This document shows, piece by piece, positions 58,875 to 60,210 of a stretch of DNA of 64,000 nt. The position numbers and the translations under genes were made by a program. How positions within the stretch are numbered: the first letter of the stretch is position 1; each line of letters opens with the position of its first letter. This DNA is from Escherichia phage vB_EcoM_RZ, in sequence record MW598459; one strand, written 5' to 3'. The notes below the pieces were generated by a model. That model searched no databases and was not told the DNA's origin. It was given only the letters and a program-made list of their open reading frames with translations.

Positions 58875-59081
58875 TCACTTGCGACGACGTTTTGGTAATG
58901 GTTTAGGGAAGAACATTGCTTTACCTGCAGGGGTCAAAGTCACACGCAAAGCATTACCAATACCAAGGGATGCTTTAACCAGACCTTTGGCTTTTAACTC
59001 ACCAAATGCTTGACGTTGTTCAGGGTCACGAGTGTTAACCATCAGACCTTTTTCACCAGCAGCTTTGATTAATTCTAACAT
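58875..59081 (-). CDS. Hypothetical basic protein (68 aa)
   Basis: ORF downstream of early promoter; C-terminal KPLPKRRRK. Confidence 0.4.
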   Translation of the reverse strand: MLELIKAAGEKGLMVNTRDPEQRQAFGELKAKGLVKASLGIGNALRVTLTPAGKAMFFPKPLPKRRRK

Positions 59082-59114
59082 TTTATTCTCCGTTTGTTTA
59101 TTTGGTAACTCAGT

Positions 59115-59152
59115 ATGGAATCATTATGCATCATGACCATCTGGTTGTACAC
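59115..59152 (-). promoter_or_regulatory. T4-type early promoter
   Basis: Minus strand TGTACA (59151-59146), 17 nt, CATAAT (59128-59123), leader GATTCCATACTGAGTTACC. Confidence 0.55.
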
Positions 59153-59198
59153 ATATACTAAATAAAAATACTTAATAAAACCATAAAGGAGAAAGTTT

Positions 59199-59945
59199 AT
59201 GATTTTATCCGGAAGAACTGTTGATGAACTCAATGAAAAAGTCCAGGCTGCCTTGGCTGATAATTGGTATTTGTTTGGTTCTACTATGGTGTTGCCGAAT
59301 ACCCCTACAGATAGCAAAGAGCGTTTTTTCCAAACTATGTCCAGCTCGGAAACTCAGATACCGGGTCCGCTTGGTCCCAAAGGAGAACCGGGTGTACCCG
59401 GACCAAAAGGAGACCCAGGTGGGGATGGAAAATCTTCTTATCAGATATGGCTTGACTTGGGAAATACAGGAACTGTTGATGATTTTTTAACTGATACAGC
59501 AGGAAAGAGGGAAAAATCCGAGGTGTTTTGGAGTGGTATAAACGTTCTATTAACTAATGGTACGACTTCAAACATAATTAGTGTTTTAAAGGGGATTCCA
59601 CCGACTGCAGGGACTCTATCTCCGTTTTTTAGAACCACTGATGATAAGTTGTGGCCATATAACCAAGACAGAAGCCTAATGTTTAAACTCAACCTTATTG
59701 GTAATTTTGCAGGAGCCTCGCAAGCTCGAAGTATAACATTAAATTTCGTTGGAACCAACGGAAACACTTATATACAGAATCGTCCGGAAAATGCTACAGA
59801 TATTTTGTCTTTTACAACGTTCTTTAGCATTGATAAAGATGGGGCAATGGCAACCAATGGTACAGCTATAACTGTTATGCCAAATGGCGGCAACTTTACA
59901 ATAACCTCCGCATTGTTAGTAGCCGAACAAACAGTGACTTCATAA
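59199..59945 (+). CDS. Collagen-like repeat protein on the plus strand (248 aa)
   Basis: SD AAAGGAGA before ATG 59199; Gly-X-Y run GPLGPKGEPGVPGPKGDPGGDG; Asn/Thr-rich C-terminal domain. Confidence 0.55.
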   Translation: MILSGRTVDELNEKVQAALADNWYLFGSTMVLPNTPTDSKERFFQTMSSSETQIPGPLGPKGEPGVPGPKGDPGGDGKSSYQIWLDLGNTGTVDDFLTDTAGKREKSEVFWSGINVLLTNGTTSNIISVLKGIPPTAGTLSPFFRTTDDKLWPYNQDRSLMFKLNLIGNFAGASQARSITLNFVGTNGNTYIQNRPENATDILSFTTFFSIDKDGAMATNGTAITVMPNGGNFTITSALLVAEQTVTS

Positions 59946-59968
59946 ACAAAAAAGGGCCATCCGGCCCT
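59946..59968 (-). terminator. Hairpin terminator between convergent genes
   Basis: A-run, GGGCC-ATCC-GGCCC hairpin; T-run on the minus strand. Confidence 0.5.
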
Positions 59969-60210
59969 TAGATTGCACTCCAAAAATTATGGAATCTTAT
60001 AGTATTGATAGCCCAGTTAACAAACCTGCGAGTTTGTTTGGGAGTTGGTTTACATATGTACTTATTGTTGATTCGTCTGCCAGTTTCCCGACAGACTGCT
60101 TCGAGATACCAGCGCCGACCTTTATTAGGTCTTCCGTATGATAAGAAGACCTTCATTTCTTCATTAACGATAATAGGAATTGTGGTTGTCAAGGTATACC
60201 TCTTCAACAA
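59968..60210 (-). CDS. Hypothetical basic protein (62 to 80 aa)
   Basis: ORF; track start overlaps the upstream gene, internal Met likely. Confidence 0.35.
   Translation of the reverse strand: MLKRYTLTTTIPIIVNEEMKVFLSYGRPNKGRRWYLEAVCRETGRRINNKYICKPTPKQTRRFVNWAINTIRFHNFWSAI

Follow-up and report, generated by a model that had tools for sequence, protein, structure and literature searches.

The genome of Escherichia phage vB_EcoM_RZ (sequence record MW598459) carries, among early genes, a gene that runs against all of its neighbours. The phage belongs to the VR7-like T-even phages (genus Gaprivervirus) and shares 99.8% identity with Escherichia phage DK-13 across the 2 kb that were compared. 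In the window, the 64,000-nucleotide stretch of this genome that was analysed, all other credible genes from 57 to 62.5 kb lie on the minus strand, and the knob gene, a 248-codon reading frame that starts with ATG, is the sole one on the plus strand. What kind of protein does such a gene encode, when in infection would it be made, and where would the product act? The first-pass annotation, made from the letters of the window, had proposed a collagen-like gene on the opposite strand. That description is verified by the reading frame, its Shine-Dalgarno sequence, eight uninterrupted Gly-X-Y triplets and the minus-strand neighbours. The features discussed below are collected in Table 1.

Table 1. 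Features of the knob gene, its cassette and the adjoining early units in the window (positions are those of the window; aa, residues of the 248-aa protein).
Feature	Position	Strand	Remarks
Sigma-70-like promoter matches of the next early unit (58875..59081 and downstream)	59072..59151	-	Left edge of slot; context
Swapped 811-bp cassette: promoter-like region, Shine-Dalgarno sequence, ORF, most of hairpin	59153..59963	+	
Overlapping near-matches to the T4 late promoter TATAAATA: ACTAAATA (59157-59164) and TAAAAATA (59163-59170)	59157..59170	+	
Shine-Dalgarno sequence AAGGAG	59186-59191	+	7 nt before ATG
CDS, 248 aa: DUF1737-like domain, collagen stalk, neck, Sf6-type knob	59199..59945	+	
N-terminal domain, aa 1-50, beta-alpha-beta-beta, divergent DUF1737	59199..59348	+	
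Collagen-like stalk, aa 56-79, 8 Gly-X-Y triplets (GPLGPKGEPGVPGPKGDPGGDGKS)	59364..59435	+	Pfam Collagen E 0.0057
Neck, aa 78-102, two-helix KSSYQIWLDLGNTGTVDDFL motif common in phage fibre proteins	59430..59504	+	
Sf6-type knob, aa 103-248, TNF/C1q-like jelly roll	59505..59942	+	
Hairpin AAGGGCC-ATCC-GGCCCTT followed by T-run on minus strand	59952..59969	-	Also 3' hairpin of knob mRNA
Converging small early gene, VR7ORF100c homologue (DUF7279)	59968..60156	-	Context, outside cassette

The gene, its slot and its expression signals

The knob gene is intact and under purifying selection. Its frame is open in all eight relatives examined, so that the disruption in close relatives that the first-pass annotation had named as counter-evidence was not seen. 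The dN/dS ratios to these relatives are 0.10-0.24, within-genus values that are based on just 10-19 differences; against phage C6, the ratio is 0.19 over 120 differences. Inspection of the 248-aa sequence found neither a signal peptide nor a membrane segment.

Homology to VR7 breaks off at 59152 and restarts at 59964, which indicates that the 811-bp segment between these points has been swapped. The cassette is present in eight Gapriverviruses, window phage included; of 121 phage records with a match to the 2-kb region, only seven have it in full. In VR7 the slot holds VR7ORF099c instead (locus L002 4650-5046); this gene is small, lies on the minus strand and encodes a protein with a Gly/Ser-rich region and an N-terminus that is hydrophobic and resembles a signal peptide. 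The slot is empty in UPEC07 (locus L010 about 2150-2200) and in VR20 (locus L008 about 2150-2200), where the DUF7279 gene is missing too. At least four alleles of the slot thus exist between the VR7ORF098c homologue and nrdC.11 among near-identical Gapriverviruses. The empty allele keeps the sequence ctactttttaaaataaaaaagg, and its similarity to ctacttttataaatatttta in the promoter region of C6 and AnYang is a hint that deletion of the cassette produced the empty state.

The knob gene lies between the nrdC.9-side genes and nrdC.11, flanked by the VR7ORF098c homologue (58875..59081, minus strand) and by the small DUF7279 gene that precedes nrdC.11. The latter, the VR7ORF100c homologue, encodes 62 aa from its ATG and matches Pfam DUF7279 at E 8e-8; in the ORF listing it begins earlier, at a TTG (60210), and overlaps nrdC.11, and the start annotated in phage P8 is the ATG at 60156. 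The location between two early units, also proposed earlier, is confirmed: an early terminator flanks the gene on one side, and sites that resemble early promoters flank it on the other. The sigma-70-like matches at the left edge count as positional evidence alone, because they are no more numerous than in shuffled sequence. A freshly inserted mobile element was considered and ruled out: repeats and an endonuclease are absent, and the position close to nrdC.11 is conserved across genera. The best reading of the locus is a self-contained accessory cassette that occupies the space from an early terminator to the following early promoter and lies on the strand of the late genes.

The hairpin between the converging genes has a 7-bp, G+C-rich stem (-12.7 kcal/mol, z = -3.2). 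In relatives the stem is conserved around a variable loop (atcc, agat, gtat, atat). Beyond the stem the plus strand reads AGAUUGCA; because the T-run is on the minus strand only, the hairpin is probably mainly the intrinsic terminator of the converging early unit. Alleles that lack the knob gene have a hairpin of their own at this site, GGACCC-cgaa-GGGTCC, whose T-run likewise lies on the minus strand; this assigns the position to the terminator of the early unit. The hairpin that the first-pass annotation described is therefore real, but as a terminator it serves the minus strand, not both genes as had been suggested.

Judged by its relatives, the knob gene would be transcribed in the late class. 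A promoter scan found no plus-strand sigma-70 promoter before the gene. In the window the overlapping near-matches ACTAAATA and TAAAAATA sit 28-34 nt before the ATG. All Gaprivervirus copies have TAAAAATA, with its mismatch at the third motif position, at the homologous place, overlapped by ACTAAATA. Both TAAAAATA and TATAAATA occur at chance-level frequency in the 64-kb window, for which reason TAAAAATA cannot be claimed as a promoter on statistics. The region is homologous to one with a perfect TATAAATA in the Dhakaviruses C6 and AnYang, and a perfect TATAAATA is found 20-60 nt upstream of the gene in three lineages (C6/AnYang, fHe-Yen9-01 and contigs L019/L020). Pseudotevenvirus homologues have CATAAATA upstream rather than TATAAATA; the first position of the late-promoter motif is poorly conserved in T4-like phages (PMC1524935). 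Since the motifs of the window phage are at chance frequency, late expression there is inferred from its relatives, and the gene is best described as a putative accessory late gene. The earlier assignment to a late or moron-like class stands in so far as the gene comes and goes among close relatives and its homologues have a perfect late promoter; the window's own motif is imperfect. As a separate observation, the knob gene of Pseudotevenviruses starts 27 nt from a divergent cytosine methyltransferase gene (IME-CF2, L006 3473-3501; Margaery, L014; L017), and their CATAAATA overlaps the start codon of that gene (CAT being ATG on the other strand).

Domain architecture of the protein

Thr, Asn, Ser and Gly abound in the C-terminal part of the protein, which is confidently predicted as a globular domain. 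This domain matches Pfam PF16532 at E 2.6e-32 (112.3 bits, aa 99-244; gathering score 27) and PHROG 1030 at E 3.3e-67, and a 50-sequence profile searched against the PDB retrieves only the HS1 and Sf6 knob structures (4K6B and 3RWN, E about 1e-62). The AlphaFold2 (AF2) monomer model has a mean pLDDT of 80.9, rising above 90 in the knob. Foldseek aligns this model with 3RWN and 4K6B at E 2e-17, with a target-normalised TM-score of 0.88-0.90 and an rmsd of about 2 A; sequence identity to the Sf6/HS1 knob is 36-38% over the C-terminal 146 aa. Weaker Foldseek matches are the knob of the phi812 central spike, C1q-like domains, ExsFA, PRD1 P5, EDA and TNF-like lectins. The Pfam, PDB profile and Foldseek searches thus agree with the first-pass annotation that the C-terminal domain is of a fibre-tip type, and identify it as an Sf6 knob with a TNF/C1q-like fold. 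The further suggestion that the domain binds a receptor is not supported, as such a role is not established even for the Sf6/HS1 founder of the family: the knob did not set host range there and was dispensable in P22 hybrids (PMC3741392).

Knob residues E108, K163, S210 and D212 are invariant in the 50-sequence alignment and correspond to E146, K200, S248 and D250 of Sf6, the tetrad that contacts bound L-glutamate in the Sf6 and HS1 knobs (PMC3741392). The predicted glutamate-binding site is conserved in the knob.

Between the knob and the N-terminal domain the protein varies in length from one homologue to another. The Gly-X-Y run has more than 20 triplets at its longest and almost none at its shortest. 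The neck module, 'KSSYQIW...GNTGT...FL', lies between collagen and knob and occurs in one to five copies; in some homologues the stalk is made up of these one to five modules, and both ends of the protein stay conserved. A length-variable stalk between conserved ends suggests the behaviour typical of a fibre.

The N-terminal domain, conserved in all full-length homologues, was missed by the first-pass annotation. Searched alone, the domain of the window protein matches Pfam PF08410 at E 0.0032, its 17.7 bits falling short of the gathering score of 24; of 13 N-domains from homologues, 12 hit the same family, the best at E 2.6e-6. Profile-profile comparison by hhalign with canonical DUF1737 domains, including the N-terminus of phi24B vb_24B_21 (gp84/NanS-p), gives a probability of 99.0% and E 4.8e-18. 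In the AF2 model (pLDDT about 70-80 in this region) a strand at residues 2-5 is followed by a helix at 8-20 and strands at 24-32 and 42-48, and one helix with three antiparallel strands agrees with the description of the phi24B gp84 DUF1737. A search of the N-domain profile against 1.84 billion representative proteins retrieved 21, among them stand-alone DUF1737 proteins that pass the Pfam cutoff. Against PDB sequences, a set that does not include the phi24B capsid structure, the profile gave only chance coiled-coil matches (E 0.5 or higher).

Other proteins also carry the domain, or may do so. Two metagenomic proteins that the N-domain profile also retrieved, the fibre-like P0126 (520 aa) and P0132 (151 aa), combine one or two DUF1737-like N-domains with 'IQWR' repeat stalks and other C-terminal heads, fusions that are as expected of a portable anchor with exchangeable cargo. 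A tblastn search with stand-alone DUF1737 against phages returned weak matches (E 0.05-0.9), with the N-termini of knob genes among them, and at this strength it is suggestive only. The same search gave weak matches to unannotated or hypothetical ORFs (H106-H111) in KVP40-like giant Vibrio phages (ValKK3, VH7D, phi-Grn1 and others); proteins of the DUF1737 type may thus be more widespread in Straboviridae.

The DUF1737 domain of phi24B gp84 is reported, from cryo-EM, to sit as a hexamer in the central pore of capsid hexons, where it is anchored by Tyr42 (bioRxiv 10.64898/2026.04.10.717836). By analogy with this domain, the likely location of the window protein shifts from the tail to the capsid or the virion surface. 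The two proteins share a plan in which an N-terminal DUF1737-type domain of about 50 aa is joined by a linker to a displayed module; the module is an esterase in gp84 and a collagen stalk with knob in the window protein. They differ as well in that the corresponding loop of the window protein, NTPTDSK, has no equivalent of Tyr42, and in that the shell is of the T=9 HK97 type in phi24B and a T4 gp23 prolate head with Hoc in the T-even phage. Homologues in Tegunavirus and Pseudotevenvirus do have a Tyr in the anchor loop.

Homologues and known systems

The knob domain is found in 293 phage records, and in 40 of them the match covers at least 80% of the window protein. Full-length homologues occur in Dhakavirus (C6 and AnYang), Tegunavirus (fHe-Yen9-01), Pseudotevenvirus (IME-CF2 and Margaery) and metagenomic T4-like contigs (the Pseudotevenvirus-type L017, and L019/L020). 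Across at least five T4-like lineages, Gaprivervirus included, the homologue is always a lone opposite-strand gene in early-gene surroundings near nrdC.11/RlaP. A full-length homologue in the Klebsiella siphophage Carvaje (roughly 57 kb) directly follows the gene for the terminase large subunit rather than tail genes. The knob alone is also the C-terminal end of podovirus needles and of a protein whose N-domain is that of a T7 tail fibre. That T4-like phages have homologues of the knob, with unknown function, had already been noted (Leavitt et al., 2013), and the family itself is catalogued; the novelty lies in the architecture assembled from known modules. Neither the DUF1737-collagen-knob arrangement nor the position as a lone late-strand gene was found described in the literature searched.

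Short collagen triple helices that end in a trimeric TNF/C1q-like jelly-roll head are known from PRD1 P5, C1q-family proteins and collagen X. The window protein, with Gly-X-Y repeats followed by a C-terminal TNF/C1q-like head, shares this architecture, as an architecture only. The heads of PRD1 P5, the C1q family, collagen X NC1 and Bacillus exosporium ExsFA are Foldseek matches to the window knob at E 3e-5 to 1e-3. Because identity is only 7-14%, the likeness is one of fold or convergence and does not amount to family membership. The anchors of these proteins are unlike that of the window protein, and for ExsFA the likeness is confined to the head fold.

T4 Hoc is a dispensable, late-expressed outer capsid protein that varies between relatives and for which surface adhesion has been proposed. 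It resembles the proposed fibre as a non-essential surface protein with the same proposed role; it differs in its Ig-like fold and its monomeric state, and is unrelated to the knob fibre. Phages that carry the knob gene retain Hoc, so the fibre would be an addition to Hoc and not a replacement. VR7 (NC_014792.1; locus L015 7817-9100) also has the gene of another collagen-like protein of far greater length, VR7ORF196w (427 aa; E 9e-42 to Pfam Collagen), which adjoins two Hoc-like genes on the late strand. A DUF1737 anchor was looked for in VR7ORF196w and is absent; the protein may be another head-associated fibre of Gaprivervirus.

A proposed fibre and its likely location

We tentatively favour, at a probability somewhat short of even, the view that the knob gene is an accessory late gene for a homotrimeric anchor-stalk-head fibre on the virion surface, most likely on the capsid. 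In this model the 50-aa DUF1737-type domain would serve as the anchor, a short collagen triple helix and the two-helix neck would form the stalk, and the Sf6-type TNF-like knob, its glutamate site intact, would be the distal head. By analogy with the binding of phi24B gp84 to hexons, the fibre would be displayed on the virion surface, most probably that of the capsid, and it might add a dispensable adhesion or surface-sensing function of the kind provided by Hoc or the PRD1 P5 spike. Late expression, trimer formation, virion association, capsid binding and adhesion in the window phage would each follow from likeness to relatives and known systems. A knob-only homologue was represented by 16 spectra in CsCl-purified Kuttervirus virions, weak evidence since non-structural proteins were detected there as well (PMC10892097). 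A literature search on virion proteomics of carriers and homologues (fHe-Yen9-01, GuL6, Carvaje and CBA120) yielded nothing usable.

Several points weigh against a capsid site. The centre of the capsid hexamer is occupied by Hoc in T4, and carriers of the knob gene keep Hoc. The loop of the window protein lacks the anchor tyrosine. The collagen stalk and knob would be trimeric and the DUF1737 ring hexameric, a mismatch unless each ring held a pair of trimers. That DUF1737 binds capsids comes from one preprint, in which the hexamers sit on a capsid of another type, the HK97-type T=9 shell (bioRxiv 10.64898/2026.04.10.717836).

The same modules could instead be placed at the tail or neck, as an accessory fibre of the collar or baseplate, like fibritin whiskers, with the N-domain on a six-fold ring and the knob aiding adsorption. 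Databases name the family 'tail needle knob', the knob tips podovirus needles and a T7-type tail-fibre protein, and a related fold caps the central spike of phi812; an N-terminal anchor of roughly 50 aa with a trimeric fibre also resembles, we presume, T4 fibritin. In every lineage examined, however, the knob gene lies outside the tail module, the sole mapped partner of DUF1737 is a capsid hexon, and the protein lacks both a P22 gp26-type plug and a coiled-coil region, so that we regard a tail or neck site as unlikely. For the narrower claim that the protein is a true tail needle of the P22/Sf6 type, homology of the C-terminal domain is the single argument, and the claim is scarcely credible: the genome is that of a contractile-tailed T-even phage, the protein has only 248 aa, and its gene is in the early region. 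The domain content refutes a gp26 needle, since Pfam and PHROG searches find DUF1737 and collagen in place of the plug and long coiled-coil shaft of the P22/Sf6 gp26 needle, and the gene of this myovirus stands apart from its tail genes. The 'tail needle knob' annotation cannot be right for a contractile-tailed phage, and the label fits the C-terminal domain only.

That the product leaves the virion out altogether seems to us decidedly unlikely. It would then be a late, soluble trimer, freed when the cell lyses, with debris, glycans of the host surface or receptors as its targets, and would act, for instance, as a decoy or a block to superinfection. The gene is dispensable, varies between close relatives and stands apart from the structural modules, the fold is shared by trimeric TNF-like lectins (BC2L-C and PLTL), and phi24B gp84 is partly freed from its DUF1737 anchor by proteolysis (bioRxiv 10.64898/2026.04.10.717836), all of which would suit such a protein. 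Against it, the sequence has neither a signal peptide nor a membrane segment; the anchor-stalk-head layout with its variable stalk is typical of virion fibres, and the Kuttervirus homologue came from purified virions. It is improbable, finally, that the cassette is a remnant, poorly expressed or on its way to being lost after its late promoter mutated from TATAAATA to TAAAAATA. The third-position mismatch shared by all Gaprivervirus copies, the chance frequency of the motif and the loss of the gene from many close relatives are what such decay would leave, but the intact frames in eight of eight copies, the low dN/dS within the genus (on its few differences) and the retention of the Shine-Dalgarno site and of the hairpin stem, with variation in the loop only, speak for a gene in use.

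The capsid fibre that we favour leads to a bolder and rather doubtful proposal. T-even phages may have a second optional system for capsid display besides Hoc and Soc, in which DUF1737 rings on gp23 hexamers, or on another six-fold site, would each carry a pair of knob trimers, collagen-stalked, TNF-like and glutamate-binding, which would serve as adhesins for host or mucosal surfaces or as sensors of them. Phages with and without the 811-bp cassette, otherwise nearly identical, offer natural comparison pairs. Should the fibre prove absent from the virion, the family would be a late soluble TNF-like trimer, which is likewise unusual. If it is on the head, it would be a new dispensable decoration for the best-studied family of phage capsids and a natural trimeric display scaffold, and would back DUF1737 as a portable capsid-binding module. 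Were the two-trimer proposal true, DUF1737 would be a general 'capsid plug-in' anchor that crosses families, from podoviruses (phi24B) and siphoviruses (Carvaje-like) to myoviruses.
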